64,000 nt of DNA, taken from positions 84,863-148,862 of the forward strand of contig JBAYUF010000001.1 of the NCBI GenBank assembly GCA_041675205.1, given 5' to 3'. The DNA is from Patescibacteria group bacterium. GTDB taxonomy: Bacteria; Patescibacteriota; Patescibacteriia; GWA2-46-9. The translations under genes and the position numbers were made by a program. The notes under the pieces were generated by a model. The model worked only from the letters and a program-made list of their open reading frames with translations, had not been told where the DNA came from and ran no database searches. Positions within the stretch are counted from its first letter, which is position 1, and every line of letters begins with the position of its first letter. This document shows, piece by piece, positions 1,904-58,007 of this stretch.

Positions 1904-3388
<1,485 letters not shown>

Positions 3389-3534: not shown

Positions 3535-3574
3535 AAAAAACCACTCCGACAAGTAGTCGGAGTGGTTTTTGGTG
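3535..3574. terminator. bidirectional terminator hairpin between the 16S (+) and a convergent minus-strand CDS
   Basis: aaaaaaccactccgac-aagt-agtcggagtggttttt, with an A-run on one side and a T-run on the other. Confidence 0.7.
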
Positions 3575-3579
3575 TCTGT

Positions 3580-4415
3580 TTAGTTTTTTGAATCGTAGGT
3601 AGCGGAAAGAAAATTGAGTGATTTGCCACTGTCTTTGAGGAGTTTGGCGTTCAAAGCTTCAGCCGCTTTGAGGTAGGTTAGGAGTTCTGGCGGGCAGTCG
3701 GACGCTTCTAACGCCCGACGGTAGGCAGCGAAGTCTTTGATAAGGCAGTGCCCACCAACACCGCGACCATCGTCATGAATAACATCGGTAAAAGAGGATT
3801 CAATATTGGGGTCAGCCACGAGTGCCTCTCGCACGTCGTCGTATGAAACTTCGTAGTGCTGGCAGAGTTCGTAGAGTGAGTTAGCAAAAAGAATTTTTAA
3901 GTAGCGATACACATTGCCGCCGTACTTAACAAGCGCCGCCGCACGAGCGTCCATTATTTTTACGTACGGCGCGGGTGGGAGAATAGCAATGACTTCTTCG
4001 GCGTGTGGTCGTGAGATTTCTGTGACGCCAATGATATGTCGAGCTGGGTTCGCCACTTCTTCAGCTGCGTACAATGCTCGTAAAAATTCTGGCGCATGAA
4101 TGATGGCAACCCCTGGTCGGAGTGCCTGTAGTTTGTCGGTTGTTTCAGGGAGGATGGTTGATTTAATGACAAGCACAGCACCATCACGCACTAGCGGAAG
4201 GGCAGCGACTAGTGCGCTGTCGTCAAAGCCTTGTGGCGTGGTTGGTGTGGGGACAGCAATGAAAACGATGTCGCACGTTGCAATCGCCTCGCGGTTTTCG
4301 ATGAAGGCAGGTTCGAGGCTATAGCGAACAATGTCGTAACCTCGTGCGGCAAAATTGTCAGCGTACGCTTTGCCAACAAATCCTTGCCCAATGAAGCCGA
4401 TGCGTTTCGTCATGA
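3580..4415 (-). CDS. nucleotide-sugar (UDP-glucose/GDP-mannose family) dehydrogenase, short form lacking most of the C-terminal UDP-sugar-binding domain
   Basis: N-terminal Rossmann motif IGFIGQGFVGK. Catalytic-Cys motif GGHCLIKD. Only ~54 aa follow the Cys. Start chosen at MTKRIGF; an in-frame ATG exists 39 nt upstream. Confidence 0.6.
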
Positions 4416-4595
4416 ATTTATTATACAACGAGAAAGTGGGGATGGTCATCAAAAATAAAAAAGCCCTCGATGGTGGGAGGTCATTGACGGGATACTTTAA
4501 CTTTTACACTTCGGTCAAGAAACAAATTTTGATGGCTTTCTAAAGTGCTTTGATAGATATTTTAAGGCTTGCCGACGTACTTCGCGTCGGGCCAG

Positions 4596-5658: not shown

Positions 5659-5952
5659 TTATGAATGCGAAATCTCAAATGAACAATGTTTCCAGTCTAC
5701 TACTCTTTACTATTCGACAAACCCGTCACGATACGAAGCGATGAGCGGGTAATCTCCGCCAGAGGCGGATCCGCCGTTGGCGGAAGCTGCTTGTCCGCCG
5801 TAGTTCGCCGCGGCGAACGGAGGAGGGAGCTACACGCCCGTAATTTTCAATGTGGGGGCACTATAGCAGACGAGCTGGTGAGGTGCAATAATTGACCATT
5901 TCACCTTCTGTTCATTATGCTTGGCTCGAGGTCAGGAAGAGGAGGTGCCGCT

Positions 5953-6485: not shown

Positions 6486-6562
6486 CGGGGATTGGCGCAG
6501 TTGGCTAGCGCGCCTGCTTTGGGAGCAGGAGGCCGCCGGTTCGAGTCCGGCATCCCCGACCA
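6486..6562 (+). tRNA. tRNA-Pro (anticodon TGG), CCA encoded
   Basis: CGGGGAT/ATCCCCG acceptor, anticodon loop TTTGGGA, T-loop TTCGAGT. Confidence 0.9.
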
Positions 6563-6571
6563 CATTAATTT

Positions 6572-6600
6572 ACATTGCGACTTAGGTCGCAATGTTTTTA
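6572..6600 (+). terminator. terminator hairpin after tRNA-Pro
   Basis: acattgcgac-ttag-gtcgcaatgt followed by ttttta. Confidence 0.6.
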
Positions 6601-6602
6601 AT

Positions 6603-6784
6603 ATCAGTAGTCCCGCATCCTAAGTTTCCATTCCTGCTAAGCAGGAATGTATAGTAAGTCGGTAGTGCCGCTAGCGAGCGGCGCAGAAGGGCGGGGCCAC
6701 ACAGTGAGTTTAGTTCATAAAAAATTCCCTGACCCAATTTGGGTCAGGGAATTTTTGGTGTCCCGCTGTGGCGGGACTACTGAC
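6603..6784. repeat. MITE-like unit bounded by 13-bp inverted repeats tcagtagtcccgc / gcgggactactga, enclosing several hairpins and hairpin copy 1
   Basis: Exact inverted repeats lie at 6603-6615 and 6772-6784. A third gggactactga copy lies at 6841-6851. Confidence 0.5.
6719..6760. repeat. terminator-like hairpin, copy 1 (aaaaaattccctgaccca-att-tgggtcagggaatttttggtg)
   Basis: Near-identical 42-bp copy of 7081-7122. Confidence 0.8.
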
Positions 6785-6890
6785 TATTTAGAGTTATGGA
6801 CTTCGTCATAACTGAATTATTGAAGCCGCCCCACTACTGTGGGACTACTGATATTTTATACCTTTCGACCAGGTCGAAAGGATTGTTAAT

Positions 6891-6945
6891 GATGCGGGAG
6901 GGAATTCCGACGCCCTTCGTCGCCAGCAGTGCGACTCAGTGCTCT
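6891..6945. repeat. ~55-bp element: degenerate tRNA 3'-end copy (gcgggagggaattccgacgcc) fused to a conserved tail cgtcgccagcagtgcgactcagtgctct; related copy at 43360-43414
   Basis: About 80% identity to 43360-43414. The first 20 nt mimic the T-arm/acceptor 3' strand of the tRNA-Leu at 7118-7204. Confidence 0.6.
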
Positions 6946-7080
6946 GTCCTGGGCAGCGCTGAATGCTGCGCTTGCTCGCATCCATCGGCGCTCGCTTAAT
7001 TCGTCGCGTCTTCCGACGCTCCTCATTGCTTGCTGCTGCCCGCGACCGAAGGAAGTGCCTGTGGTATTCGATTCCCTCCG

Positions 7081-7122
7081 ATCGTACATAAAAAATTCCC
7101 TGACCCAAATTGGGTCAGGGAA
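7081..7122. repeat. terminator-like hairpin, copy 2. It abuts and overlaps the 3' CCA of tRNA-Leu(CAA) and works as a bidirectional terminator.
   Basis: 42-bp near-exact copy of 6719-6760. Confidence 0.8.
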
Positions 7123-7204
7123 TTTTTGGTGCCGCGGGAGGGAATCGAACCCTCACGAGGTTGCCCCCACAGGATTTTGAGTCCTGCGCGTATACCAGTT
7201 CCGC
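7118..7204 (-). tRNA. tRNA-Leu (anticodon CAA), long variable arm, CCA encoded
   Basis: Reverse complement has GCCGCGG/CCGCGGC acceptor, anticodon loop CTCAAAA, a long extra arm and T-loop TTCGATT. Confidence 0.9.
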
Positions 7205-7365
7205 CACCGCGGCAGCACTCAAACAATAGTTCCTCTTCAGCACTCGCCCATCAATTGTGCTCAAAAGCGTTGAAAGGCAGGTGAGGCGCATTGTATTTGT
7301 GTTCTGGTGCGTTGTCAAAGGGGCGCAAGTGAAGGTATACTGCCCCTCATTAATGTATACACAGT

Positions 7366-8157
7366 ATGTCTGAACTGCGTTCCGTTACCCTAGCCTCCAT
7401 AGATACAAATCCTTGGCAACCAAGGCACGATTTCGCCGTTGAAGAATTGGCTGGTCTGGCTGCTTCAATAAAAGAGCACGGCATTCTTCAGCCACTTGTT
7501 GTAACTGAACTACCAAGCGGTCGCTACCAACTTATTGCTGGTGAACGGAGGTTTCGGGCTGCGAAACAAGCCGGATTGTCGAAGGTATTTGTCATTGTGC
7601 GCGAAGCGAATAATCAACAGCGATTAGAATTGGCTCTCGTTGAAAACTTGCAGCGACAGGATTTAAACCCCATTGAACGAGCACTAGCATATCAGCGGCT
7701 GATGCAGGAGTTTCAACTAACGCAGGTTCAGGCGGGTGAACGGGTGGGAAAAACACGTTCGGCGGTTGCTAATGCCTTGCGACTCCTTGATTTACCGGCA
7801 AAGATTCAAGAAGCAGTCCGACAAGGTGTGCTTACTGAAGGGCATGCGAAAGTTATTGCTGGGTTACCTACAACACAGCAGATGAGTTTCTTTGAACGAG
7901 TAATGGCTGGAAATTTGTCTGTTAGAGAAACGGAACGAATTGGTCGCAAAGTTAAAGCTGGCCGCCCTGCCGCCCAAGCGTCAGTAAACGAGGATGAGAT
8001 AATCGATCACTACCGGGGACTACTCGAGGGGGAGCTAGCGACGAAGGTAGAAATTAATGACAAGGCTGGTTCAGGTGAGGTAACTATTCATTTTTATAGC
8101 GAAGAAGAATTGCAACGAGTGGTACGAAAGATTTTAGGCAAAGAAGAGGGGGAGTAA
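7366..8157 (+). CDS. parB: ParB/Spo0J family partition protein (no parA adjacent)
   Basis: ParB box motifs LQPLVV, GERRFRAAKQAGL and HTH region VGKTRSAVANALRLL. Confidence 0.85.
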   Translation: MSELRSVTLASIDTNPWQPRHDFAVEELAGLAASIKEHGILQPLVVTELPSGRYQLIAGERRFRAAKQAGLSKVFVIVREANNQQRLELALVENLQRQDLNPIERALAYQRLMQEFQLTQVQAGERVGKTRSAVANALRLLDLPAKIQEAVRQGVLTEGHAKVIAGLPTTQQMSFFERVMAGNLSVRETERIGRKVKAGRPAAQASVNEDEIIDHYRGLLEGELATKVEINDKAGSGEVTIHFYSEEELQRVVRKILGKEEGE

Positions 8158-8294
8158 TTTTTGACTATTTATTACCTCAGTTTTAAACCTATCCCACATT
8201 TATATTTCGTTTAGTTTATTGTTCACTTTCTTGCTTGTCCAAGAAAGTGGTCGCAAAGAAGGACACCCTCACTCCGACACTTACGCGACTTCTC

Positions 8295-8377
8295 GCACTC
8301 TGGCACAGACTGGTCATGAACTCCTCACTATTTGTTCGTCAGACAGCATGACCAGTGTTTTGTCTGTGCCAGAGTGC
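8295..8377. repeat. long imperfect inverted repeat (arms ~24-30 bp, ~28-nt loop) in the parB/rnj convergent intergenic region
   Basis: gcactctggcacagactggtcatg ... catgaccagtgttttgtctgtgccagagtgc. Confidence 0.5.
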
Positions 8378-8615
8378 TGGTCGCTGTGGTGCCTACGCTA
8401 AAGGGTTAAGAATCCAAAAAACCCGTTAGCGACGTCAGCCCAGCGGTGCTGCAAGAGCTTGCGCTTTGGAAACGGCCATGTGTTCGACAAAGCGGGAAGC
8501 TGAGAAGTTCATGGCCGAGCTGCAAGGTCGCGCAGCTAACCGCGTCGCTAGCGGCGCGAGGGCATCGTTCTTTTGGTAACTTTTCTTGGATGAGCAAGAA
8601 AAGTTACAGTATTCA

Positions 8616-21854: not shown

Positions 21855-22562
21855 ATGATGGATTTTTTTCAAAAACTTGGCGTTCGATTTGATCAGCACA
21901 GCCAATCAATCCTGTTGGCGTTTCTGTTTTTTGTTGGTGGCGTTGGTCTCATTCTTGGTGGAATGAATTTGCGAAGCTCTTTACGAAATCCATTTATTGA
22001 AAAGGGTGTTGGCGCTCTTCAAACAGCCGAGGGAACAACAGCGCTGGTTGACACTGATGGTGATGGCTTAACCGACGAAGAGGAATTGGCGCAGTATGGC
22101 ACGAGTCCGTATTTGGCGGATTCTGACTCAGATGGCGCAAACGATGCCGATGAACTTGCTGCGAGCAGTGACCCCAATTGTCCAACTGGAAAAAATTGTC
22201 AGGCCGTGGCTGAACTTGATGTGCCGAGTAGCGCCGGTGATACCTTCTCGTCGCTCCTACAGGTTTCTGCAAATGGCACAACAGAACCAAGTGCGGCGCA
22301 GATTCGAGCGGCGTTGCTCACTTCCGGTGTGGCTGAATCAGAATTGGCAAAACTAACTGATGAAGAAATAGTTGCTGGGTATCGTAGCGCTGTGCAGGCT
22401 CAAACTTCAACGACAGCGAGTGATGGCGTTCAGAATCTTTCGACAGAAGAAATTCGAAAGGTACTTAAAGAGCAAGGAGTGACTGACGAGCAGCTCTCCA
22501 AAATTTCTGACACCGAACTGCTGAAACTTTACGAAGAGACGCTGCGTCAGACGCAGCCGTAG
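21855..22562 (+). CDS. membrane-anchored hypothetical protein with a DTDGDGLTDEEE calcium-binding-type motif and two tandem ~30-aa repeats (…EEIxxxLxxxGVxExxLxKxxDxE…)
   Basis: N-terminal TM segment. 235 aa. 9-nt gap to the giant gene. Confidence 0.6.
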   Translation: MMDFFQKLGVRFDQHSQSILLAFLFFVGGVGLILGGMNLRSSLRNPFIEKGVGALQTAEGTTALVDTDGDGLTDEEELAQYGTSPYLADSDSDGANDADELAASSDPNCPTGKNCQAVAELDVPSSAGDTFSSLLQVSANGTTEPSAAQIRAALLTSGVAESELAKLTDEEIVAGYRSAVQAQTSTTASDGVQNLSTEEIRKVLKEQGVTDEQLSKISDTELLKLYEETLRQTQP

Positions 22563-22570
22563 TTTTTTAT

Positions 22571-25500
22571 ATGCAGTTAGGATTACATAATCGGCAAAAG
22601 CGTCATCGGTTCGTGGGTGCACTACTCGCGCTTGTGTTTTTATTTACTGGCACGTTTGGAGCGCCGCAACGGGCGAATGCGCAAGCCATCAAGGCCTTTA
22701 CGACATCGGTTAGTGACATTTGGACTTCACTCCAAACTATTGGAGACAAAGCGGTGGCGGCGTACGAGAAAGCAGCAGATATAAAAACAGAAGCACTGAA
22801 AGAGTCGGCCGCGGTGAGCTTTCGTCAGGGCGTTAGTTATTTTTTAAATAAGATTGCCAGTGACACAGCCGTGTGGATTGCCAGCGGTGGGAAAGGGCAA
22901 AAGCCACTCTTTATTACGCAGGGGTGGGGTTCCTATTTGACCGATGCCGCAGAAGGGGCGGCCGGTGCTTTTGTTGATGGACTCATCACCGGCCCAGTGG
23001 CAAGTTGCCAATGTCGTGATCAATACGGCTCAATCGAACCAAATACGGCGACCGAGGAGGTGCAGTGTTTGACTACAACTACCATAAACGGAATTCCTGT
23101 TGAGTGTCAGTGGACCCCTGGTACGAAATCAGATTCAACAAATACGTTGGGACTTATTGCCCAAGGGTTATGTGCACCAGATGCTGATATTCAACTTTCC
23201 ATTAATTTAGGGTTAGCGAATTCCGGTCGACAGCGTGCCCCGAAGTGCACCTTTAGTCGCATTAAGCATAACTGGGAGCAATTAATTCGAGAGAAAAACT
23301 TTCTACCAACGCTTTCTCAGAGTTTTAACCCCAGTCAAAGCGACCTCGGCATTGCGTTGACACTGCAGTCAAATCTGTTGCTTGAAAAAAGAGAAGCCAA
23401 AGAGCGGGCAGAAAAAGAGCGACTTGAAGCTGGTGGGTATAAGCCAGTAACGGGCGGCGTAGGGGATGTTTTGAAGTTACCTGGTCAGACGGTGCGAGGT
23501 ATTTTTGACGGTGTTTTTAAAACGACAACTGAGCAGAATCAATCGCCGACCGGCACCATTATTGGTGATGCTGTTGATATTTTTGTGAATACATTGGCCA
23601 CTAACTTCTTGAAAAATCTTATCAGCGGTGGATTTAGTGGTAATACTTCTTCGAGCGGTGGGAATAAACCTAATTTGAGTAATTTTGAAGCCGAATCCGC
23701 CACTGAAGGGGTTCTTGGCGCGCAAGCTCGACTGGCGCAAGAGCTTCGTCCACGGTTTACTGTTCCTGGTCGGTATGACGTGTTGTCACAGCTCGTGAGT
23801 TGTCAGAATACAAAAAATCCAGGGCCGAATGATTGCGTCATTACTGATAGCTTTCGGAACGCCGTGTCGCAGCGCCTTACCGTTCGTGAAGCTGTTGATC
23901 GCGGACTCATTAACGCAGACGCACCGTTTGGATTTGTTGCGTGGGATCCACAATCAGTTGAGCCAAGTTACAATGAAGGGATACCGTATCGTTCAATTCT
24001 TATTCTACGAAAATATAGGATTGTACCAGTCGGGTGGGAGTTAGCCGCCCGCTACATTGAACGTTTTCAAGATGATTCCCCAAAACGAGTTACGCTTGGT
24101 GAGTTACTGAACCTTTACGATCAACCAGAGCTGCCGGGTGGAGCATTGAACCCATACTATCATTTAGTCGATCCGTCATGGGTGCTCGTGCCACCGGATT
24201 CGTTTTGCAAGTTGCAAGGTTCTGGTCCACAAATTCTAAGCCAGGATGTTTTGCCCGGTGTGGACTCTGACAATGATGGCAAGTTCACTTCAGTTGGTGA
24301 TACCGCCCCCAAAGTCGCGATTTCTCGAAATGCAAATTACTGTGCCGATGAACAGACCTGCATCGCTCGAGATAATGATGGGAACTGTAAGTTCTACGGG
24401 TATTGTACCGAAGAAAAACAAGTTTGGGATTTTGGTGGGAAGAGCTGTTCACCTCAGTTTTCAAGTTGTACCACATTAAAAAATGAACTCAGCGGTACTA
24501 CCGTCTCCTATCTCCTCAATACGGTTGATTTTTCTCCATGTGACGCTAGTTCCGTTGGTTGTGCCATGTATAGTGCAACACCATTGTCTGATACAGTCTG
24601 GAGCACGAGTGATGTCATATTCCTGAATAACCAAGCAGAAACGTGCAGTAAAGATGACGCGGGGTGCCGAAAGTTTATTCGTACCGGCGCGCAATTTCTA
24701 AATGGGTTAAGCACAAATTTAGTTCGTAATCCTGGATTTGAAGTGGTTGCAGAGGACAACAGCTTTACCGGATGGACCGCAAATGGCGGCGCCGTGGAGT
24801 CGGTCACCGAAGCGCAATTTAGTGGGAGCCGGTCACTCAAGGCAACAACACTTAGCGTGCTATCGCAGTCAGTTCTCACTGGGCCACTAGCCAATCAAAC
24901 CGTTACGCTTTCATTTGAAGCTCGTGGAGCCATTGCTGGTCAAGTTCTTGGTTATACCCTTGCGGCAGGTGATGCCATACAGACAGCCGCTACCCTTACC
25001 ACCGAGTGGCAGCACTATGAGGTGCGGAAAACCTATGGTGCCACAGCTGCTTCATCACTTACGCTGGAGCTGTCAGTCCTTACTGGTGTCGCAATTGACA
25101 ATGTAAAGATTCAGCTTGGTGCCGCGTCGGCGTATTCAGCATATGGCGAAGGGGCAAGTAATAGTTCGGTGTATTTAAAACGAGCACCGGCGTACCTCTC
25201 TGCGAAGACTGACATCGACTTTCTTGCAAGTAACGAACAGAGTTGTCGGCCCTCGGCGGTGGCTAGTGATGCCGTAGATGAGAATAGTGAACGGGCGGAA
25301 TGTCAGCCGTATGCCCGCTACTGCACACCGCAGGAAGCTGGTTGTCTGCGCTATACGCCCACCAATCGCACAACACCGGTAACGGCCGTGAGTGGTTCTT
25401 CGTGCCCGGGCGAGTGTGTTGGCTTTGACACCTACACCCAAGGGAAAACTTTCTTTGAGTCGGTAAAATTTGTTGACCTTATTCCTACCTCGGGAGAGCG

Positions 25501-28500
25501 TTGTTCAGCCGCCGCGGTTGGTTGTGATGAATTCACAAACTTAGACACAACAACGCAAGGCGGCGAATCGCGCGAGTTCTACCAACAGGTTCGATTCTGT
25601 GAATTACCAGGTAGAGCAGATGCCGGGACATTCTACACATGGGAAGGGTCAGACGACACCGGCTTCCAGTTGCGAGTCTTTACTTTAAAGAAAACGGATG
25701 TTGGAGTAGAAAATTATTTTGTAAACGATGTCGGTGACACCGGTGTTGACAGCGCCGCGCCGTGTACGAAAATTGATTGGTCCGACGATGGTCAGTCTGC
25801 GACCTGTGCTGATACAACGCAAACCGCTGACCCGGCGTGGCGAACCTGCAACGAGAACACCTATCAAGGGAATCCCGATTGTCGACAGTTTTATAATGAA
25901 GCTGGTTTAGTGTCGTACCGTTTGCTATCCCACACCATTAGCGTGACGGACCAATGTCGGCCATTACGGAAAACGACGTCCAACACCATAGATTGTGAGG
26001 CATCAAATGGTTGGTGGAACAGTGCGTTGCAGGCCTGCTTGTATCAAGCCGTGCCAGGTGAAGGTCGGCAGTGTAATGCGGCGGTTGCTGGCTGCCGTGA
26101 GTATCGAGGCGGCACAGCCGCTCGATATCGAACTATTTTAAATGACACCTTTGAGCGTGGCACTGGAAACTGGGAGGGTGGACGATTAAGCCCGGTGGCC
26201 AGTACAGTCGGCGGACATTCGTATGAAATACTTGATCGCACTACCCGTAAACCAGTAACGGTTTCTGATGGTAGCAGTACGGCAGTTGACGGCTCGGTTA
26301 CAAACGGGGCAACGTACGTCGTGAGTTTTTCAGCACGGGCACAAAATGGCGATACTGATTCAGCTTTCGTACTTTCTTTTGAAAGAAAGAGCGGGGAGGT
26401 CGACCTATTAATTACAGATTCTTTAACGAATGAGTGGCAAACATATCAGAGTGACCCAGTAACTATCTCTGTAGACCCTACTGACCCCCTGGTTGGTTTA
26501 CTTATAACGCATGCTGGTGCAGGTCGCGCTTATGTCGATAACGTTACATTACGCACCACGAGTGATACGCATTACCTCATTAAAAATTCTTGGCAAACAC
26601 CATCCGCTTGCTTTGCTCCGGACACTGGGGAACCCTATTTGGGTTGCCAATCATATAGAGTGAGTGACGGTTCGGAACGTTCTGTGTGGGAGTTTGGCGG
26701 AGCCTGTCATGATAAGGTCGTTGGCTGTGAAGCCGTCATCGACACGCAAAACACAACGATTGGTGAAGTAGCCCCCTTTGCTAAGACATTTGCTGAGGAC
26801 AGTGAAACAATCATTACCGTACCTGAAGACTCGCTCGACTATATCGTTAATGACCCAGCCAAAACATGTAAAGTAAGCGCCCAAGGGTGTGAGCTTTTGG
26901 GGAAAGCAAACCTTTCTACTGCGTCAGCATCTCCAACCCTTCCGTTGGCCTTAGCGGTTTTGCGATGCCACACACAAAGAAATTCTTGTGTTTCAGATTT
27001 GCGCATTAGATTAGTTGCCGCCGGGTATGATAAAGATTTGCTAACAACACCAGGTATTGATGAAAATTTAGTAGCGAAGTTTGACAGTAACGTTTTAGGC
27101 GCTAAGGATGCGTTACTCATCTTGCGCAATTCTGTTGGTCTTGGAGATCCAAACATTAGCACCTGGACGACAGGAGCTGTCTTAAATAATCCTGACACCT
27201 ACGACAGTATTCTTTGTCGAATTGATGAGCTTCAGTGTTCTGCCTTTACTGATAGCGGTGGCTCGACGTATTACTTTAAAGATCCAGGTAGCCAAATTTG
27301 TGAATACCGAACTGACAAACCAATCGCTGGTTGGTACGTTAAGGGAACCATAAGTCTGACCCCAGATTGTAACGCTAGTCAGAATGATCCTGACGTTAAC
27401 ATCCACATTGCCGGTGGCACTGCGCCTAGCCCGCAGTCTGGGTTTACTGGTGTGTGTCCGGCGCAGCAAAATAGTTGTCGCGAATTTATTGATCCTCGGT
27501 CTGATGGCAGCGCTAACATTCTCTATAACGGTGAGTTCATATTGAAAACTGATGACAAACCAGTTCGGTGGAAGGAAACGGTTCCTGGGGATATAGCTGA
27601 TGTAGAGGGTGGTGTTAAAATTATGGAGGGTGGTCTTGAGCAAGAGCGGGTGGCACTTCGAACGCGCACCCTGTACGTATTGTCAGCCGAGGTGAAAGCG
27701 GTAAATGCCGCCGCTACTAAAACAGCGGGCTATGTCGGTATAGATTGTGGCGTGGGTGAAGTGTTTACTGCTAGTGATATTCCCTATGCCTTTGCCGTGC
27801 CACGTTCTACGGAAACCTTCGAACGATTCAGTACACAGTTTTATGTTAGTGGTGACGACCAGGGTGATTGCACCGTTAGTGTTGGTTTGGCGGCAAGTTT
27901 GCTTCCTCGAGACAAAAGCGAATTTACCACAAATAGCGGTGTGATTGTTCGTGCCATTAGCTTACGCGAAGCAGGACTACACTATGAATTAGCCAATGGT
28001 GTATCGCAAAAAGATTGTGCTGGTACGGTAAACAATGCGAACTGCGTGCTGGTTGGTGTGCAGCAAGACTTCACCCAAAAAGGTATCACCGCCAATTTTG
28101 ATGCCGATACAAGCCCCACAAGTACGAAAGTGCCAAACAGCGATAGTCGGGGAGAGTATGTATGTATTACCGCCGAGAGCCGCTGTGTTGGAACTGATAG
28201 GGCGTGTACTAATGATAGCGACTGTCAGCTGCAAAAAGATGCAACGTTCATTGCTAGCGTGCAGCCAGGTCGCGAGTGTGGTGCATGGCTATCTTGCCGG
28301 ACGGCCAGAACAGTTGTCAAAGGTGGGGTTACTAATAACGTTTGTCTGGAGGTTGAAGGGTGCCAAGAGCTCGACGACAAGGGGAATTGTATTCGACGAG
28401 CCCCAGACGTTATTGATACTGACCTGACCTACACGGCAGCCACCGTCGACCTCTTGCGTAATCGGTCCGGGTATTCAAAGGTCGGCTTTGACTGGACAAC

Positions 28501-31036
28501 GGATCCGTTGAAGAAAAAAGTGATTCAGGGGTATTTAGCGCCAGGGATGATGAGCCAAATTGGTCAGTTAGCCGGGAATTTTAATGGTACCTTTGAGAGC
28601 GCTAGCATTGTTGGTGAACCGTTCGGGTGGGTTGGATGGGGGCAAGGCCAGAATATGCTGGTGATTGGTGACCCACTGGCTGCTCAGGATGCAGGCATTA
28701 GTTATCCTGCAGAAGGGAAGAATGTACTTGAGGTAAACGCCAATCATGCTGATCCAGACGCCAATCATGCTGATCCAGACGACGATTACGTGCTTAATGA
28801 TGCTTCAACAAATCTTTCTCGCTTTATTCCCGTTACACCAAACACCGAGTACGTGCTATCTGCTTTGGTGAACACAAGGCAATTCACTGGTGAAAGTAGC
28901 GAAGTTCGTGTCTTTGAATACAACGGCATTGCTGAAACTATTCCCAATGCCACGGGTGATAAGTTTTCTGCTCTACTTAACCTTGGTCGTGGGACTGAGT
29001 GGACTATTCGCACTGATAAATTTACAACAGCTAGCACTACGAGTTACGTGCGACTGCAACTTTCATGGGTGCCGCAGGCCGGTAAACCAGAGACTTCCGG
29101 GTTCTGGTATATTGATGATATTAAATTACAACCAGCACTTGAATATCAGAAAAATGAGTTTTATAACCCTAACGACCTGGCGGGTAGTAGGGTTGCTCCT
29201 GACTTTCCACCACTTGCCTATGAGCGAGGTTTAGAAACGCTTGATTATAAGTACGCTTCACAGTCATGCCGGCTTTACCCGCAGGCTGATGCCCTGTCGT
29301 GCTCCTACTTTGACGACAATGGATTAAAGCAGCGCGGTAAACTGGGTTATTGTTTGGAGTGGGACACGCAAAATAAGAATTACTGCATCCAGTGGTGGCC
29401 GGTGGACAATGTTATTGGTGAAGACAGTGAAGAAGATCGAGCCGGTTACGACGGCCCCGTTCCTTTGTACCAGTGCATTGAAACCTACGACGGCTTCTTA
29501 CCAGCCACCAGCAATAATTTTTACGGTGTCTATTACAATGGCAAACATTCCTCAATTAAAATAGAGGATCCGTGGGAAAGCTATCAGATAGAAGCAGATA
29601 GTACCGTTGTCATCGACCTCTTCAAGAGTGGCTTTGATGGTTTGCCAAATGTGTCATCCGGTGGCATTACTGATAAGCCTGGTACCTGCAACAGAGATGG
29701 CGGTGACATCACTGGGTGTGAAATCGCGATTCGTATATTGAAGGCTAGTGATGACGAGGATGAATGTGCCGAGGTGTATGTTGGTAACAAAATGGGACAG
29801 GTCGTTAATGGTGACGACAGTGAAGACGGGGATGTAAAAGTGAGAGCGGCAGAAGTGACAAGAGTTACAACCCGCAAGTCAGCCGCCTTTCTTGATTTAG
29901 CTGATCTTGGCCCTGAAAATAGTAAACGCAACTATCGGTATCTTAAAATTTCAACTATTGATACTGGTTGCGATCAATCAGAGATTCGGCTTTGGGTCCG
30001 TCCTAACTTTGCCTGCACGGCAGTGCTTCGAACAGTGGACGAGGATGGTACTAATAAGGCCTACGCCAGTCGGGTAACGTCTGGAGCTACCTACCCATTT
30101 AGTTTTCCAGGCGGTCTAACCTACGGGTATTCAACTGATAGCCCACCATTTGGTTCGGCGGTGCCGCCAGCCCCGGCGGGAGATCCCACGCAATGGGATA
30201 CCAATACTGAAGCTGGAAAACAGGCACTGTTCGCTATGCCGAAGCAGGTGAATACTAGCAACAAAGAGCTCGCCCGAGCTGGTGGCCCGTATAGCTGTCT
30301 TTCGATTGGTTCAGTGCAACCTTTCGTTGCCGAAGGTGAGCCATGGACCTGGGGAGGGACGGTTAGCATTAGGCAGCCAGCATGTGCTTCTTATCTTGGT
30401 GTACCTGGAGTAGTCGGGGGTCGTAATGAGGCGGTTAAACTGCTACAAAATTTATTTGTTAAGAGCTACGGGATGTGGGAGTGGAAGAATGAAGCATACA
30501 CTCCAGCAACTGGTGCTATTTTAACAGTACCGGATGAGCGGTGTAAGAATAATGTTCGACCCGAACCGGATGATCCTGATGCTGCCGATGCTTGCTTTGT
30601 GTATCCAGGTATTCCAAAGGCTGTGTTAGACACAACAACCGTTAAGGATGTCGGTGTTGTTGGTATTAGATTCACCGCCGTAGCTGACTCCGACCAGGAG
30701 CCTATTGTGCAGTACATAGTAGACTGGAGGGACGGCTCTAAGACTACGCAAACAGGCTTACGACTTTCCAGCCGTTCAGAAATTGCGCAGGCGATTTCGC
30801 TCACTCACAATTACTCTTTTGATCAAATCAGTCAGTGCAAAGAAAATGGTGATTGTGGGGATGTTGGCGGTACCGGTACCGATAGCAATCCGTTCACTGT
30901 CAAGCCACAGGTGCAAATTCTAGATAACTGGGGATTCTGTAGCGGTAGTACCCTTGGTTCGGGAGACAGCCTGAGCACGGGTGGCTGTACAGGCTCATGG
31001 AAAGAGACGGAAAACGAGGTAGAGATTACCAGATAG
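22571..31036 (+). CDS. giant secreted Cys-rich protein (2,821 aa) with several CBM4/9- or galactose-binding-like beta-sandwich segments
   Basis: Signal peptide with a …RANA|QA cleavage site. Uninterrupted 8.5-kb ORF. Recurring NPGFE…GW-type segments. High Cys content. Confidence 0.85.
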   Translation: MQLGLHNRQKRHRFVGALLALVFLFTGTFGAPQRANAQAIKAFTTSVSDIWTSLQTIGDKAVAAYEKAADIKTEALKESAAVSFRQGVSYFLNKIASDTAVWIASGGKGQKPLFITQGWGSYLTDAAEGAAGAFVDGLITGPVASCQCRDQYGSIEPNTATEEVQCLTTTTINGIPVECQWTPGTKSDSTNTLGLIAQGLCAPDADIQLSINLGLANSGRQRAPKCTFSRIKHNWEQLIREKNFLPTLSQSFNPSQSDLGIALTLQSNLLLEKREAKERAEKERLEAGGYKPVTGGVGDVLKLPGQTVRGIFDGVFKTTTEQNQSPTGTIIGDAVDIFVNTLATNFLKNLISGGFSGNTSSSGGNKPNLSNFEAESATEGVLGAQARLAQELRPRFTVPGRYDVLSQLVSCQNTKNPGPNDCVITDSFRNAVSQRLTVREAVDRGLINADAPFGFVAWDPQSVEPSYNEGIPYRSILILRKYRIVPVGWELAARYIERFQDDSPKRVTLGELLNLYDQPELPGGALNPYYHLVDPSWVLVPPDSFCKLQGSGPQILSQDVLPGVDSDNDGKFTSVGDTAPKVAISRNANYCADEQTCIARDNDGNCKFYGYCTEEKQVWDFGGKSCSPQFSSCTTLKNELSGTTVSYLLNTVDFSPCDASSVGCAMYSATPLSDTVWSTSDVIFLNNQAETCSKDDAGCRKFIRTGAQFLNGLSTNLVRNPGFEVVAEDNSFTGWTANGGAVESVTEAQFSGSRSLKATTLSVLSQSVLTGPLANQTVTLSFEARGAIAGQVLGYTLAAGDAIQTAATLTTEWQHYEVRKTYGATAASSLTLELSVLTGVAIDNVKIQLGAASAYSAYGEGASNSSVYLKRAPAYLSAKTDIDFLASNEQSCRPSAVASDAVDENSERAECQPYARYCTPQEAGCLRYTPTNRTTPVTAVSGSSCPGECVGFDTYTQGKTFFESVKFVDLIPTSGERCSAAAVGCDEFTNLDTTTQGGESREFYQQVRFCELPGRADAGTFYTWEGSDDTGFQLRVFTLKKTDVGVENYFVNDVGDTGVDSAAPCTKIDWSDDGQSATCADTTQTADPAWRTCNENTYQGNPDCRQFYNEAGLVSYRLLSHTISVTDQCRPLRKTTSNTIDCEASNGWWNSALQACLYQAVPGEGRQCNAAVAGCREYRGGTAARYRTILNDTFERGTGNWEGGRLSPVASTVGGHSYEILDRTTRKPVTVSDGSSTAVDGSVTNGATYVVSFSARAQNGDTDSAFVLSFERKSGEVDLLITDSLTNEWQTYQSDPVTISVDPTDPLVGLLITHAGAGRAYVDNVTLRTTSDTHYLIKNSWQTPSACFAPDTGEPYLGCQSYRVSDGSERSVWEFGGACHDKVVGCEAVIDTQNTTIGEVAPFAKTFAEDSETIITVPEDSLDYIVNDPAKTCKVSAQGCELLGKANLSTASASPTLPLALAVLRCHTQRNSCVSDLRIRLVAAGYDKDLLTTPGIDENLVAKFDSNVLGAKDALLILRNSVGLGDPNISTWTTGAVLNNPDTYDSILCRIDELQCSAFTDSGGSTYYFKDPGSQICEYRTDKPIAGWYVKGTISLTPDCNASQNDPDVNIHIAGGTAPSPQSGFTGVCPAQQNSCREFIDPRSDGSANILYNGEFILKTDDKPVRWKETVPGDIADVEGGVKIMEGGLEQERVALRTRTLYVLSAEVKAVNAAATKTAGYVGIDCGVGEVFTASDIPYAFAVPRSTETFERFSTQFYVSGDDQGDCTVSVGLAASLLPRDKSEFTTNSGVIVRAISLREAGLHYELANGVSQKDCAGTVNNANCVLVGVQQDFTQKGITANFDADTSPTSTKVPNSDSRGEYVCITAESRCVGTDRACTNDSDCQLQKDATFIASVQPGRECGAWLSCRTARTVVKGGVTNNVCLEVEGCQELDDKGNCIRRAPDVIDTDLTYTAATVDLLRNRSGYSKVGFDWTTDPLKKKVIQGYLAPGMMSQIGQLAGNFNGTFESASIVGEPFGWVGWGQGQNMLVIGDPLAAQDAGISYPAEGKNVLEVNANHADPDANHADPDDDYVLNDASTNLSRFIPVTPNTEYVLSALVNTRQFTGESSEVRVFEYNGIAETIPNATGDKFSALLNLGRGTEWTIRTDKFTTASTTSYVRLQLSWVPQAGKPETSGFWYIDDIKLQPALEYQKNEFYNPNDLAGSRVAPDFPPLAYERGLETLDYKYASQSCRLYPQADALSCSYFDDNGLKQRGKLGYCLEWDTQNKNYCIQWWPVDNVIGEDSEEDRAGYDGPVPLYQCIETYDGFLPATSNNFYGVYYNGKHSSIKIEDPWESYQIEADSTVVIDLFKSGFDGLPNVSSGGITDKPGTCNRDGGDITGCEIAIRILKASDDEDECAEVYVGNKMGQVVNGDDSEDGDVKVRAAEVTRVTTRKSAAFLDLADLGPENSKRNYRYLKISTIDTGCDQSEIRLWVRPNFACTAVLRTVDEDGTNKAYASRVTSGATYPFSFPGGLTYGYSTDSPPFGSAVPPAPAGDPTQWDTNTEAGKQALFAMPKQVNTSNKELARAGGPYSCLSIGSVQPFVAEGEPWTWGGTVSIRQPACASYLGVPGVVGGRNEAVKLLQNLFVKSYGMWEWKNEAYTPATGAILTVPDERCKNNVRPEPDDPDAADACFVYPGIPKAVLDTTTVKDVGVVGIRFTAVADSDQEPIVQYIVDWRDGSKTTQTGLRLSSRSEIAQAISLTHNYSFDQISQCKENGDCGDVGGTGTDSNPFTVKPQVQILDNWGFCSGSTLGSGDSLSTGGCTGSWKETENEVEITR
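28739..28780 (+). repeat. perfect 21-bp tandem duplication inside the giant gene (ANHADPD x2, in frame)
   Basis: gccaatcatgctgatccagac is repeated twice head-to-tail. Confidence 0.9.
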
Positions 31037-31039
31037 GGT

Positions 31040-31369
31040 ATGGCAAATACATTTAGCAGCGTTGACGAACAATTGCTTGCCCAAAATAGTGATGTGGGTG
31101 AACAAGAGCGCGCACAGCAACTGCGTGGGCTGCAGTCTATTGCCCGTCGGCAACTCGCCTCGCGGGCGGTGAAAAAGGGTGCTGGGGCAGCAGCCCGTTC
31201 GGGCGCCATGGGGGCCGCAAAAGCCGCTCGAACAATTTGGATTATTATGGCTGCTCTTGCCACCCCGGAAGTCTTGACGGTCGTTATCGTTTTGATGCTT
31301 CTTGTACTCTTCATGAATTACGCCTTATCGATACCAGTTGTCGGCGACATACTGAAGTGGTTTCTATGA
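31040..31369 (+). CDS. small membrane protein (109 aa, C-terminal TM hairpin)
   Basis: 4-nt gap after the giant gene. Its stop overlaps the next start (ATGA). Confidence 0.55.
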   Translation: MANTFSSVDEQLLAQNSDVGEQERAQQLRGLQSIARRQLASRAVKKGAGAAARSGAMGAAKAARTIWIIMAALATPEVLTVVIVLMLLVLFMNYALSIPVVGDILKWFL

Positions 31370-34300
31370 GTTTTCGTGATCTCTTAAAGAAGAAATATAT
31401 ACGTCGTCAGGTATTGATAGCTGCAATGCTCGGTTTCATTGTCATGCTTCCTATCGGTGTTAAGGCAGCAGGGATTGGTGACGGGATTCAGGGGACCATC
31501 TTCGGAGTACTTTCATGGGGCATTTATGGCATTGTGCTCTTTTTATCTCGTTTTACCGTTTGGCTTGTCGGTTTTTTAGTAAGCATCGGACAGTATAACG
31601 GATTTATTAATTCACCAGTTGTGTTGCAGGGTTGGGTGGTATTGCGAGATATATCGAACATGTTCTTTGTACTCATCCTACTTTTGATAGCGTTTGGCAC
31701 CATCCTTCATATTGAGCAATATCAAATGAAACGATTGCTGCCCAAAGTGCTCCTCATGGCAATCTTGGTTAACTTTAGTAAAGCCATCGCCGGGCTGCTG
31801 ATTGATTTCTCACAAGTTATAATGCTCACTTTTGTGGCGGCGTATCAGGCTGCCGGAGCGGGGAATTTAGCGCAGGCAATGCATCTAGATAAAATTTTAG
31901 CAATAAAAAATACAGAGGATGGTGGTTTGTTTGATGAAGCTGCTGCCGAGACGCTCGTGGCATTACTACTTGCACTTGTATACATAGTCGTTGCCTCGGT
32001 TGTTGTTGGGGCTTTTGCGGTGATACTTGTGGTACGAATGGTGATGTTGTGGTTGCTCATCATTTTTTCACCACTCGCCTACGTCCTTTCCGTTGTGCCT
32101 ATTGGGCAAAAGTATGCCAGTCAGTGGTGGGAAAATTTTGCAAAATATGTAATTTTAGGTCCGGTCATGGCATTTTTCTTGTGGCTATCACTCGCCACAC
32201 TGCCGACCCTTATTGCAAGTGACGCCGACCTTGCTGTTCGTACACAATCAAGCGGTAGCGCACAATCACTCGCCGAAGAGAAAGAGCAAGTCAAAACCAT
32301 CGGTATTACAGAGATTGGCTCTGGGTCTGTGATGTCCGGATTTCTCATCAGCATCGTTATGCTCTTTGCGTCGCTCATGTTTGCAATCCAGACTGGTGGC
32401 GTGGTTGGGAAGATTGCTGGTGGTGCCTATGGTCAATTACTGAGTAAAGGCACCACAGTGGCAAAGATACCATTAGGCCTTGCCAGTTGGGGAGAAAGAA
32501 AGGTTGCTCGCATGACGGGTGGTGTAACCGCATTTCTGAACCCAGTCCGGGTTGCTCGGGCTTGGCGTGGTTACGCTGCACACAAAGCGGGTCGTGAGGA
32601 GGCAGAAATTGGCTATCGAGCAGGGAGCGCCGCTAGTGCTCATTTTGCCGCTGGTCGAGGGGTGCGCGGCGCACTGCGATTAATGGCCGGAGCGCATGAA
32701 GATGCTTTTGAAACGTATATGGGAACGCATGGAGTGATGCGTTTTGTCAAAACCATGAGCGGCAACAGTAAAACAGGTACGAATGATTTTCTTGATGCGA
32801 AACGATTACAGCAAGAGGCAGATATTGAGCGGGAAACTTTCAATGCCGCAACTGATAAGGGGCGAGTAGATAAGATTCGGCAAATTGGAAAAGAGCACTA
32901 TGCCGACAAATTTCGTACCAAGATTATGAAGGAGGAAGTTGATCGCGTCAGTGTTATTCGTGGTTTTGGGAAAAGCGACAATAAACTTGACCCCTATAAT
33001 TCACGTAAAGAAATTAACGATGAAGGTAAGCAAGAAGTAGTTACCCTTAAAGACGCAGCAGAAAAAGCAGGCGTTGATTTAACAGACACTAGCAGTAGTA
33101 CAACACAGGCGTTTCTGCGTGAATGGGATGAAGATAATGCCCGTCGTGATTTAGGTAAGCGGCCAGGTGGTTTGGAGGGTCGGGTGAGCGCACTTGTTGC
33201 AAAAAAGGGCGATGCTGATATTTTGGACCAAGGCAAACGTACGCTCGGTGAGAAATTAAAAGCGCAAGAATCCTATGTTACGGAGCTTATGGCGGGTGGG
33301 CTTTCGAGCACAGAAAAAGCAACACGTGAGCAACAAGAAAAGACAGTAGATGAAGAATTACGACGTATTACTGCGGCGCTTAAAACGGCAAGTGGTGTTG
33401 AGAAACAATCACTCAACGCACTAAAGACAGAATTACAGAAAGAAAAAAAGAGTGGTCGATTTGATAAAGACACTGCAGGTAACTACTTACTGACCAAGAA
33501 AGAACGGGATGAAAATAAAGAGAAAATTAAAGACTTCAGTGATCCTCGCCGGGCTGATTACAGCAGTGCGCTTAAAGAGCAGAAAAAGCTTTACGGGATG
33601 ACGTTAGACCCAGCCGACGCCGCAGAAAAGATGGAAATTGACCGTGCGAAAGCGAAGGCAGATGAAATAATGGCTCGTAGAAAGGAGCCAGATGTGGCAC
33701 CTCGCCCGTATTTTGCCGAACAAGCATTCAGGCATTTAGAGTCGGAAGAATCGTCGAAATTACCGCGCGAAGCCATGGAGTACGACGAAATTGATGCATT
33801 ACTGAAAGATGCATTACATGAGGGGAACATCGTGAAAACATCAGCGCTCATGAAGAAAGCGGCGAAAGATGCTAACGACAACGAAATTTGGAATAGTTTC
33901 GGTTATGGTAGTGGGCCCGAAGGTGCTGAGCAATTTAGAAAGGCAAAACTTGTCCCATTAATGGGGGACCAGGCCTCAATGTCACTCATGAGTGAGCTGA
34001 ACTATATTAACGAAGATATTGGTCACACTAACACCACTCGTTCGTATGGGGTGAGGAATGGTTCATACTATAAGAAATCTGCAGCTGAGCAATCGGCATC
34101 CGCGGCGTGGGAAGTAACGAAACGGCAATCACGAAACTTTTTGCAAAATACAAACCGACTTGGTTTTGGGTATGAAGATACTGAAGGCAAGTTTCACCTT
34201 GATTTAACTGGCAAGCTTATCATTTCATCAATGCAAAATGACATGAATTACCGGTTGAATCGAAAAGAGTTTAACAACAACCTATTGTTGAAATTACTAG

Positions 34301-34455: not shown

Positions 34456-34467
34456 GTAAATTTCACT

Positions 34468-35892: not shown

Positions 35893-35894
35893 GT

Positions 35895-36326: not shown

Positions 36327-36343
36327 CGTGTAATTGAAAATAA

Positions 36344-41211: not shown

Positions 41212-41222
<11 letters not shown>

Positions 41223-41358
41223 ACTACCGACTAGTTTTTCCACCAGAGGCGGATCCACCCTTGGTGGACAAGACTGTCGCCATTGTAACCACCGACTACC
41301 TAGAAGTCCCGCGAAGGCGGGGTCGGACACCTCTCCGCACTACCGACTAGTTTTTCCG
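41212..41358. repeat. direct ~30-bp repeat of the tRNA-Ser(TGA) 5' end plus flank (cacctctccgcactaccgactagtttttcc x2), with a partial anticodon-arm copy between
   Basis: Exact copies at 41212-41243 and 41328-41358. gactgtcgccat recurs at 41272-41283. Confidence 0.7.
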
Positions 41359-41446
41359 CTTTTGGCTGAGCCACTTCTTTACGAGGTAAATATACCAGTG
41401 ATTATGGCGTCGGCATAGTTTAGCTACTTCCCGATCGAATGGCAAA

Positions 41447-57981: not shown

Positions 57982-58007
57982 TTTTCGATTCACTATTTCG
58001 TTTTCAT

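Follow-up and report, generated by a model that had tools for sequence, protein, structure and literature searches.

What kind of DNA fills the 564-nt spacer between the converging genes for tRNA-Pro(TGG) and tRNA-Leu(CAA) on contig JBAYUF010000001.1 of a Patescibacteria group bacterium (assembly GCA_041675205.1)? The spacer lies in a stretch of 64,000 nt (positions 84,863 to 148,862 of the contig), here called the window, and is dense with direct and inverted repeats. These repeats are real and far from chance. Our preferred reading, held with somewhat better than even confidence, is that the spacer is non-coding scar tissue left by repeated recombination, the tRNA genes being a hotspot of insertion and rearrangement; most likely it is neither a working gene nor an active mobile element. 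The original prediction, a reading of the letters alone, had seen here a decayed attachment-site (att) duplication at a tRNA 3' end, with an insertion resembling a miniature inverted-repeat transposable element (MITE) on top.

Repeats within the spacer

The spacer contains a 53-nt direct duplication (6713-6765 and 7084-7136) whose copies are 92% identical and for which shuffled sequences expect 0 matches. The segment consists of the last 5 nt of tRNA-Leu(CAA) (CACCA on the gene strand), a hairpin and ATG(A/T)AC. The hairpin is a perfect palindrome of 37 nt, and its copies differ at the central loop base only. Every sequence that the original prediction quoted is present, and it was right that a hairpin occurs twice; the 42 bp at 7081-7122 that it named give way to palindromes at 7091-7127 (copy 2) and 6720-6756 (copy 1). 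Copy 2 begins at the CCA of tRNA-Leu, placing a stem-loop and U run directly 3' of the gene as a predicted terminator, and the A5-6/T5-6 arms put a T run 3' on both strands, as expected of an intrinsic terminator. A simple terminator scanner reports hairpins H1 and H2 of the spacer (Table 1) and misses the 37-nt hairpin, whose T run is stem-internal. More long palindromes of 32-37 nt, 91-100% self-complementary, stand at gene ends at 241-272, 3536-3570 and 58006-58042; long perfect palindromic terminators seem to be a habit of the host genome.

The idea of a decayed att duplication survives in part. Duplicated tRNA-end material is present, as insertions leave it, but the segment comprises 48 nt of 3' flank and 5 nt of tRNA, the reverse of what a classical att duplication would show. 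The continuation of copy 1 ('tcccgc...') had been taken for a mimic of the tRNA 3' end; beyond the shared TTTTTGGTG its similarity is not above chance. Positions 6763-6778 fit the 5' end of tRNA-Leu (nt 2-17) better, at 14/16 in the opposite orientation, with an uncorrected p of about 0.01.

A second repeat is the 13-mer TCAGTAGTCCCGC, which occurs four times, all window matches falling in the spacer. Its two exact copies form the inverted repeat that was already recognized (TCAGTAGTCCCGC at 6604-6616, GCGGGACTACTGA at 6771-6783); a third, GTGGGACTACTGA at 6839-6851 (12/13), and a degenerate fourth at 6659-6671 (11/13) can now be added. They belong to four modules, two per strand, each made of a variable hairpin, 8-9 nt of AT-rich sequence and TCAGTAGTCCCRC. 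Three of the four 13-mers run into a tetraloop hairpin of 5-7 bp, giving the units GTAG-TCCCGC-CACA-GCGGGA, GTAG-TCCCAC-AGTA-GTGGGG and GTAG-TGCCGCT-AGCG-AGCGGC. Similarity to the T-arm of tRNA-Pro (11/12, p=0.03) and to the 5' end of tRNA-Leu (14/16, p=0.01) is suggestive of a tRNA origin of the 13-mer; neither derivation survives correction for the nine segments tested.

The modules are parts of a larger symmetry. Aligned with the reverse complement of 6757-6910, the arm at 6548-6719 scores z=14.1, and z=10.1 with the 13-mers masked. Positions 6563-6892 are therefore one degenerate palindrome of 330 nt with hairpin copy 1 as its axis. Each arm opens with a tRNA-like 3' end followed by CATTAA, and the inverted homology reaches the last 15 nt of tRNA-Pro. 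Folded as RNA, the palindrome gives z=-13.9.

The remainder of the spacer, up to hairpin copy 2, holds E1, a 186-nt element at about 6894-7079 that is bracketed by two copies of the tRNA-Leu T-arm, one direct (12 nt) and one inverted (13 nt). The direct copy, GCGGGAGGGAAT at 6894-6905, is identical to nt 69-80 of tRNA-Leu(CAA) and bears out the tRNA 3'-end mimic proposed near 6893. The inverted copy at 7067-7079, absent from the original prediction, mirrors 7137-7149 across hairpin copy 2. E1 is not called a tRNA by a covariance model, even at E<=5. An overlapping unit, E1b (6874-6945), is 78% identical over 76 nt (E=6e-10) to E2 (43339-43414), which stands beside tRNA-Ser(GCT), 36 kb away. 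A second shared piece, 6957-6984, matches 43950-43977 on the other side of that gene. Since E1b recurs as E2, the 12-mer at 6894-6905 is the end of a repeat unit and not the continuation of copy 1. A single pseudo-tRNA end split by an insert of about 125 bp, as once supposed, is thereby abandoned: 'gcgggagggaat' belongs to the repeat unit found also beside tRNA-Ser(GCT).

Fragments beside other tRNA genes and in relatives

The spacer is not the only place where pieces of a tRNA gene lie close to their source. Exact matches of at least 12 nt between tRNA and non-tRNA sequence were collected, and those within 400 nt of their own tRNA were counted as near. Seven fragments are near and three lie elsewhere in the 64 kb; the near fraction expected under uniform placement is about 1.25%, which makes the excess very strong. 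The seven come from tRNA-Ile (13 nt), tRNA-Leu(CAA) (12 nt direct, 13 nt inverted), tRNA-Ser(TGA) (15 nt) and tRNA-Ser(GCT) (16 nt, 18 nt and 12 nt inverted). Own-end fragments flank four of the eight window tRNAs, and each 3' fragment has one boundary in or at the T-loop. In the spacer, the intervals from tRNA-Leu are 48, 222 and 371 nt. Upstream of tRNA-Ser(TGA) there is, in addition, a 52-nt copy of the 5' end of the gene and its leader, 85% identical.

The most elaborate case is tRNA-Ser(GCT), which is embedded in an array spanning 43339-43998. Downstream of the gene, B1, B2 and E2 stand in tandem with tRNA-Ser 3' fragments between them, and the geometry of the inverted fragment equals that of the inverted fragment 48 nt downstream of tRNA-Leu. 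To judge from its layout, the array looks like successive insertions with older material pushed outward. Its only strong gene-strand terminator comes after E2, so the array units may be co-transcribed with tRNA-Ser(GCT).

Small palindromes also occur in these tRNA-flanking inserts. The inverted T-arm copy at 43727-43738 is interrupted by a 24-nt hairpin before the acceptor-like TCCCTTCC. Inside the tRNA-Ser(TGA) upstream insert, 41305-41321 reads AGTCCCGC-GAAG-GCGGG, with the stem of the minihelix at 6762-6778; at no more than 2 mismatches the window has 8 matches, against 1.07 expected. A palindromic motif, CCAGAGGCGGATCCRCC..GG, is common to two inserts upstream of tRNAs (5755-5784 and 41239-41268) and is also intergenic in an Uhrbacteria relative (L002, 1070-1132); it may represent a small dispersed palindrome family.

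Altogether 36 related and other loci were retrieved. The relatives compared at tRNA-Leu(CAA) are loci with ParB homologs, and the percentages given for them are ParB identities to the window ParB. Across these loci the position of tRNA-Leu(CAA) beside parB is conserved and the surrounding DNA is not. The spacer 3' of the tRNA varies in content and length (L002, L004, L006, L008, L015, L020), starting with the closest relative, L008 (92%), whose 3' flank is non-homologous. In L006 (73%), a homologous hairpin is preceded by the inverted TTCGATTCCCTC and followed by an exact 43-nt tRNA 3' half, with the intact tRNA-Leu 45 nt beyond it; the 5' end of tRNA-Leu(CAA) is duplicated as well (about 16 nt plus leader), and both duplicated ends lie in L006 7595-7900. 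In L002 and L012 (73%) the hairpin and both its flanks are decayed and stand about 105 nt from the intact gene, in L002 with a tRNA remnant. L004 has a ParB identical to that of L002 and a different left flank, with a converging tRNA-Leu(TAA); comparison of 6830-6925 in L004 with 7720-7790 in L002 places the breakpoint inside a palindromic terminator, in its left arm; the stem measures about 22 bp.

More distant relatives carry other inserts. L015 (62%) has a homolog of E between two terminators, bracketed by 17 nt copied in direct orientation from the 3' end of the L015 tRNA and by an inverted T-arm copy. The core of this homolog, TGCCCTGGGCAGCGGTGAATGC, matches the window at 20/22, and the inverted copy, TTCGACTCCCT, matches the T-loop variant of L015 itself. 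In L020-L025 (64%), a 390-nt insert parts the intact tRNA-Leu from a 30-nt 5' copy and the conserved promoter; it contains a frameshifted GIY-YIG open reading frame (ORF) of about 87 aa (L020 2010-2401, Pfam E=1e-12). Eight further loci, L016-L019, L026, L027, L029 and L030, lack the spacer or are not syntenic. Presence and absence thus vary between relatives, and not at tRNA-Leu(CAA) alone: L028 (1920-2460), a 92% relative by its tRNA-Ser(TGA) locus, lacks the 5'-end and leader copy there and keeps the internal fragment in decayed form. The absence of this duplicate implies that the events are recent and lineage-specific. The differing scars among relatives show that such events do occur at this tRNA-Leu(CAA) gene, and that the locus is a recurrent, lineage-specific target of small insertions and duplications at which the tRNA is left intact.

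Outside these spacers, the tRNA-Ile/Phe/Pro block of L006 is rearranged relative to the window, and in L020-L025 dnaA stands about 1.7 kb from the tRNA cluster.

Table 1. Positions of features in and around the spacer and at other tRNA genes of the window
Feature	Positions	Strand	Remarks
tRNA-Ile(GAT) nt 1-13	5827-5839		exact; 169 nt upstream of gene
tRNA-Pro(TGG)	6486-6562	+	left spacer boundary; ARAGORN; Rfam tRNA 67.9 bits
H1	6572-6595	+	tRNA-Pro terminator-like hairpin, 10-bp stem then TTTTT
M1	6604-6616	+	TCAGTAGTCCCGC; with flanks, left 17-nt inverted end ATATCAGTAGTCCCGCA (6601-6617)
H4	6620-6658	+	imperfect hairpin
M4	6659-6671	+	degenerate 13-mer TCGGTAGTGCCGC (11/13); 3' part opens small hairpin
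53-nt segment, copy 1	6713-6765	.	hairpin 6720-6756, bidirectional terminator-type; centre of large degenerate palindrome
M2 and 7-bp minihelix	6761-6783	-	minus strand: TCAGTAGTCCCGC-CACA-GCGGGAC, then ACCA, hairpin copy 1
H3	6792-6813	.	imperfect hairpin agttatggacttcgtcataact; sequence reading and fold
M3	6839-6851	-	GTGGGACTACTGA (12/13), within right 17-nt inverted end (6838-6854)
H2	6861-6881	.	hairpin CCTTTCGACC-A-GGTCGAAAGG, mirror counterpart of H1
E1b	6874-6945	-	hairpin GTCGC-ACTGCTG-GCGAC and T-arm-like 3' end; homologous to 43339-43414
E1 left end	6894-6905	-	12-nt direct copy (T-loop end, T-stem 3' strand, part of acceptor)
Conserved E core	6945-6966	.	TGTCCTGGGCAGCGCTGAATGC; common to L015 element (169-190) at same position
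E1 right end	7067-7079	+	TTCGATTCCCTCC, exact 13-nt inverted copy of tRNA-Leu(CAA) nt 65-77 (T-loop and T-stem 3' strand)
53-nt segment, copy 2	7084-7136	.	hairpin 7091-7127 abutting tRNA-Leu CCA end
tRNA-Leu(CAA)	7127-7213	-	right spacer boundary; tRNA search and Rfam
tRNA-Leu promoter-like site	7290-7318	-	TTGACA-17-TACAAT
tRNA-Ser(TGA) nt 22-36	insert region 41221-41374		15 nt; upstream of gene
E2	43339-43414	-	paralog of E1b; far end of array downstream of tRNA-Ser(GCT)
tRNA-Ser(GCT) nt 74-89	43420-43435		exact 16-nt direct 3' fragment; 354 nt downstream
Tandem units B1 and B2	43420-43773	-	B1 43423-43574, B2 43623-43773; 78% identical, about 200 nt
tRNA-Ser(GCT) nt 72-83	43727-43738		exact 12-nt inverted T-arm fragment; 51 nt downstream
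tRNA-Ser(GCT)	43789-43880	-	embedded in array 43339-43998
tRNA-Ser(GCT) nt 2-19	43980-43997	-	exact 18 nt; 100 nt upstream

The genes around the spacer run in the order trmD, 16S rRNA, a truncated dehydrogenase-like ORF, tRNA-Ile(-), tRNA-Phe(+), tRNA-Pro(+), spacer, tRNA-Leu(CAA)(-) and parB. A promoter-like site for parB (7312-7341) diverges from that of tRNA-Leu, where 'gttgtcaaag' is kept in L002, L006 and L008. The best named matches of ParB (7366-8157) are metagenome-assembled genomes (MAGs) labelled 'Patescibacteria group bacterium', and a 30-mer of tRNA-Leu is found among GTDB species genomes only in a Patescibacteria MAG and in Candidatus Uhrbacteria CG10_..._48_11. Further out, the 16S rRNA gene (1904-3386) is unlinked, with 23S and 5S genes nowhere in the window, and 3' of it lies a UDP-glucose/GDP-mannose dehydrogenase-like ORF (3580-4452) truncated so as to lack its C-terminal domain. 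Between parB and the RNase J gene, 8227-8601 shows long, weak self-complementarity (62% over 390 nt); at this position relatives carry fragments of periplasmic-binding-protein genes. Very large proteins with no or few Pfam matches are encoded at 21855-40168 (2821 aa with one CBM_4_9 domain, 1072 aa and 474 aa), adjoined by a TraG/VirB4-like ATPase (37042-38898) and a ComF-like phosphoribosyltransferase protein. This cluster may specify a surface or DNA-uptake apparatus.

Proposed history and rival explanations

The features above can be ordered into a history. In a lineage of the candidate phyla radiation (CPR) resembling Uhrbacteria, DNA would have been repeatedly inserted into, or duplicated beside, tRNA genes. 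At each event an intact tRNA would remain, while an older fragment, in most cases with a boundary in or at the T-loop, would be displaced together with its terminator. The ancestral order at tRNA-Leu(CAA) would be an inverted T-arm fragment, a long palindromic terminator and the tRNA, kept today as the surroundings of hairpin copy 2. Next outward would come E1, with its direct and inverted T-arm copies as bounds. Beyond it would lie the 330-nt degenerate inverted duplication of modules of the form 'tRNA 3' end, terminator hairpin, AT-rich spacer, TCAGTAGTCCCGC', and copy 1 within that palindrome would be a sharply bounded 53-nt duplicate, or a gene-conversion tract, of 'ACCA + terminator'.

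The repeats and their statistics, the clustering of fragments near their own genes, the homolog at tRNA-Ser(GCT) and the differences among relatives are observed directly. So are the position of palindromic terminators at centres of larger inverted homology and, in L004 against L002, at one rearrangement breakpoint, and the single case of a nuclease gene within the insert. For the enzymology and the order of events, we infer insertion or repair at tRNA genes that regenerates the gene and displaces a fragment, as in tDNA integration (PMC4383910) and in the build-up of remnants at tRNA-anchored islands (bioRxiv 10.1101/2020.12.28.424599). Candidate machineries are a tyrosine integrase acting on a symmetric T-arm, repair of a break made by a homing endonuclease, and template switching at long palindromes. 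The T-arm, GAGGG-TTCGAWT-CCCTC, has stems that are identical in both orientations and a nearly palindromic loop. With such symmetry a recombinase could act on the T-arm either way round, and the inverted fragments would be explained. The mirror copies and the 330-nt palindrome could instead stem from double-strand breaks and subsequent fold-back or template switching at the 37-nt palindromes.

CPR/Patescibacteria have small, gene-dense genomes, and their DNA uptake and loss are little understood. At tRNA-Leu(CAA), nearly every relative examined bears a different insertion scar, in one case with a gene for a GIY-YIG nuclease. These findings suggest that the main breakpoints of small-scale DNA turnover in this lineage are tRNA genes and their long palindromic terminators, even without recognizable integrases. 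Scars of this type interrupt assemblies from short reads and may be misread as pseudo-tRNAs, MITEs or small RNA genes.

Several observations weigh against the scar reading. Neither the spacer nor the window ORFs of at least 150 aa yielded an integrase, a transposase or a homing endonuclease. As displaced fragments, the copies depart from the classical form: 6894-6905 is tRNA-internal, 7067-7079 is inverted, and the 'islands' measure 50-400 nt. The hairpin duplicate is sharp-edged and 92% identical while its adjoining sequence is unrelated, which is not simple decay; by its edges, the 53-nt segment probably suits a short conversion or recombination tract better. Across hairpin copy 2 the T-arm mirror is 13/13; the next 10 nt show no such relation, and yet three lineages conserve them (GAYYRTACAT). 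Conservation of the 13-mer (13/13, 12/13, 11/13) exceeds that of the surrounding arms, which are about 70% identical. The E core agrees at 20/22 between the window and L015 although the other intergenic DNA of the two loci is unalignable, and the ends of E follow whichever T-loop variant is local, with ATT in the window and L006 and with ACT in L015 and L020. The behaviour of the 13-mer, the E core and the E ends hints at constraint or ongoing conversion rather than neutral junk, and leaves a minority chance to a functional RNA or cis-element and to a small mobile element.

Searches for coding and known RNA content gave little. ORFs in 6563-7127 have no Pfam match, and a protein-coding spacer was rejected on the ground that the overlapping ORFs of at least 40 aa are arginine-rich or of low complexity. 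In Rfam 15, only tRNAs and 16S rRNA reach the gathering threshold in the window; the sub-threshold matches on the hairpins are to long-stem microRNA models and are regarded as spurious. None of the known RNAs considered fits: a signal recognition particle-like GGAA hairpin, transfer-messenger RNA or, after the terminator, the 5' end of a group II intron. The hairpin core has 0 matches in GTDB species genomes, one in JGI metagenomes (an unrelated terminator, L009) and one in IMG/VR (a coding match, L010). Viral scans with the E core return six coding matches, four of them from one phage gene, as by chance. In these three collections, then, the sequences are no widespread repeat. Distant BLAST of the whole spacer against phage genomes matches the tRNA only.

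Four other candidates were tried and set aside. A phage attP finds no counterpart, as a 30-mer of the tRNA-Leu 3' half has 0 matches in viral contigs. A CRISPR-like array does not suit 13-mers that are inverted rather than direct and only four in number. The position of dnaA beside the locus in L020 raised the idea of a replication origin; over the whole window, cumulative GC skew shows a monotonic rise, and the 13-mer matches DnaA boxes poorly. Nothing in the spacer resembles a parS site for the adjacent ParB.

Among the rival explanations, one that we regard as unlikely, while keeping it in view, is that 6603-6852 is a foldback MITE of about 250 bp inserted at a TA 3' of the tRNA-Pro terminator. 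It would have terminal inverted repeats of 14-17 bp (TCAGTAGTCCCRCA) with hairpin copy 1 inside, and 6659-6783 may be a nested copy. Such an element would be small and non-coding, as this unit is; its inverted ends ATATCAGTAGTCCCRCA (6601-6617 and 6838-6854) match at 16/17 with TA on both sides, and the strand folds extremely well (z=-13.9). The inverted homology, however, does not stop at these ends. It runs about 40 nt past them, reaching the terminator of tRNA-Pro and the final 15 nt of that tRNA; this is unlike an inserted element. Moreover, neither the window nor 12 related loci hold a further copy: all four 13-mer matches in the 64 kb lie inside the region, and the 12 loci have 0. In viral scans the 17-mer inverted end meets one phage coding sequence, twice, as chance would have it. 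No transposase occurs among the ORFs of at least 150 aa, and TA flanks are uninformative in an AT-rich palindrome. The MITE-like insertion of the original prediction is therefore not upheld.

A bolder proposal, which we put forward at similarly low confidence, is that E1, E2, B1 and B2 form an undescribed family of miniature elements. These would be geneless, 120-200 nt long and located at tRNA genes with long variable arms (Leu, Ser) in Uhrbacteria-like CPR. Their closing helix would be the T-arm of the neighbouring tRNA in direct and inverted form, so that the ends track the local tRNA and the internal core TGYCCTGGGCAGCGSTGAATGC is kept across lineages. Members could be non-autonomous elements that recombine at the near-symmetric T-arm in either orientation with the tRNA regenerated, or trailer RNAs that pair with the T-arm in read-through transcripts.

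Slightly less probable again is a function for E (about 6894-7079), possibly including the minihelix-ACCA module, as a structured RNA or cis-element tied to tRNA-Leu(CAA). Its closing helix, the tRNA T-arm with its complement, might act on read-through precursors or as an antisense or decoy RNA. E occupies the same place between two terminators in the window and in L015, and its 22-nt core, at 20/22, fits the degenerate pattern at every position. In the closing helix, which is preserved, A-U changes to G-C in agreement with the T-loop of each genome, and the internal hairpin covaries between E1b and E2 (GTCGC/GCGAC against GTCGT/ACGAC). The window, L006 and L002 all retain the inverted T-arm fragment together with the spacer GAYYRTACAT, and folding reaches z=-6.4 in the window (hairpin included) and -3.7 in L015 (plus strand). 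These likenesses rest on two full examples only, with marginal BLAST homology (E=0.004-0.007) and a weak consensus fold (-7.6 kcal/mol). No promoter-like site and no Rfam family go with E, which is absent or decayed in L002, L020, L026 and L016. Several diverged copies per genome resemble a repeat family, not a housekeeping RNA. A functional or mobile E, if confirmed, would be a new type of element linked to tRNAs.

Very improbable, in our estimate, is a cluster like repetitive extragenic palindromes (REP) or bacterial interspersed mosaic elements (BIME), in which four modules of GTAG plus hairpin, mobilized by a REP-associated tyrosine transposase (RAYT), alternate in orientation at gene 3' ends. 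The orientation does alternate, the location is extragenic, GTAG is followed by a palindrome at three of the four 13-mers (the tetraloop hairpins of 5-7 bp), and the AGTCCCGC-GAAG-GCGGG hairpin at tRNA-Ser(TGA) is similar. Families of this kind, in contrast, comprise tens to hundreds of dispersed copies; here all the 13-mers fall inside 250 nt, one related hairpin is found in the 64 kb and none in the related loci. A Y1 (RAYT-like) transposase gene is not found among window ORFs of at least 150 aa.

Chance similarity or an assembly artefact is scarcely credible: the source is a MAG, palindromes and short repeats can mislead assemblers, and L001, an independent Logan contig that encodes the same ParB, starts within hairpin copy 2, but a break there is what a true 37-nt duplication predicts, shuffles expect 0 hairpin matches against a palindrome z of 14, most repeats (12-18 nt) are below assembly k-mer length, and the hairpin, mirror fragment and E core stand at the same locus in independently assembled relatives.

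Comparison with known systems

Scar tissue at a tRNA hotspot has counterparts in several known processes. Fold-back priming or template switching at hairpins yields inverted duplications centred on a palindrome. Both 37-nt palindromes of the spacer likewise centre larger inverted homology (6548-6719/6757-6910 and 7067-7079/7137-7149). The mirror at copy 2, 13/13 in the T-arm with 10 unrelated nt adjoining, is unlike simple duplication followed by neutral decay. Free-standing GIY-YIG homing endonuclease genes occur in tRNA gene regions, as with SegB of phage T4. In L020-L025 the GIY-YIG ORF sits between the intact tRNA-Leu(CAA) and its displaced 30-nt 5' copy, and would thus be a nuclease cassette inserted into tRNA-Leu(CAA) with the gene regenerated. 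The window differs in having no GIY-YIG remnant (tblastn with the L020 sequence gives no match), the L020 ORF is frameshifted, and cleavage of the tRNA gene is a presumption. Foldback MITEs with TA target duplication, such as the Correia elements, derive from elements of the IS630/Tc1-mariner type. By description, the spacer shares with them a self-complementary, non-coding unit of about 250 bp with 14-17-bp terminal inverted repeats and TA flanks. It differs in its single copy, in inverted homology that passes the ends and in the lack of a parent transposase among window ORFs of at least 150 aa, and, again compared by description, it resembles no known element.

The closest likeness is to integration at tRNA genes. 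Displaced tRNA gene fragments mark integrase-mediated integrations, and 3' fragments far outnumber 5' fragments in the Islander collection (3760 to 159; PMC4383910). As there, an intact tRNA is accompanied by nearby copies of its own ends, with 3' fragments downstream and 5' fragments upstream. The boundaries fall in the T-loop/T-stem region, a known crossover sub-site, material accumulates in tandem at tRNA-Ser(GCT), and relatives differ at the site. Of the fragments at tRNA-Leu in the window, 6894-6905 lies downstream in direct orientation but is internal (nt 69-80 of 87), copy 1 holds only the last 5 nt of the tRNA, and 7067-7079 is inverted; the relative L006, with its 43-nt 3' end fragment, has a fragment of the Islander kind. 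In contrast to Islander cases, the spacer has neither integrase (window ORFs of at least 150 aa) nor cargo. Its intervals are 50-400 nt, while Islander islands measure at least 2 kb (2-200 kb with cargo). One fragment of the window is tRNA-internal and two are inverted, 5' fragments are as common as 3' fragments, and the largest duplication is of the tRNA flank (the terminator) and not of the tRNA.

In Prochlorococcus, partial tRNAs accumulate as remnants where elements called tycheposons pile up at one tRNA (bioRxiv 10.1101/2020.12.28.424599). The window shares with them a streamlined genome, repeated integration at one tRNA that pushes older material outward, and partial-tRNA remnants. It lacks tyrosine recombinase fragments and cargo and is built on a scale of hundreds of bases rather than kilobases; the account of tycheposons does not include inverted T-arm copies or palindromic terminators as axes. 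Despite these differences, the feature is a miniature, integrase-less version of a known phenomenon, recurring at four of the eight window tRNAs and in relatives.

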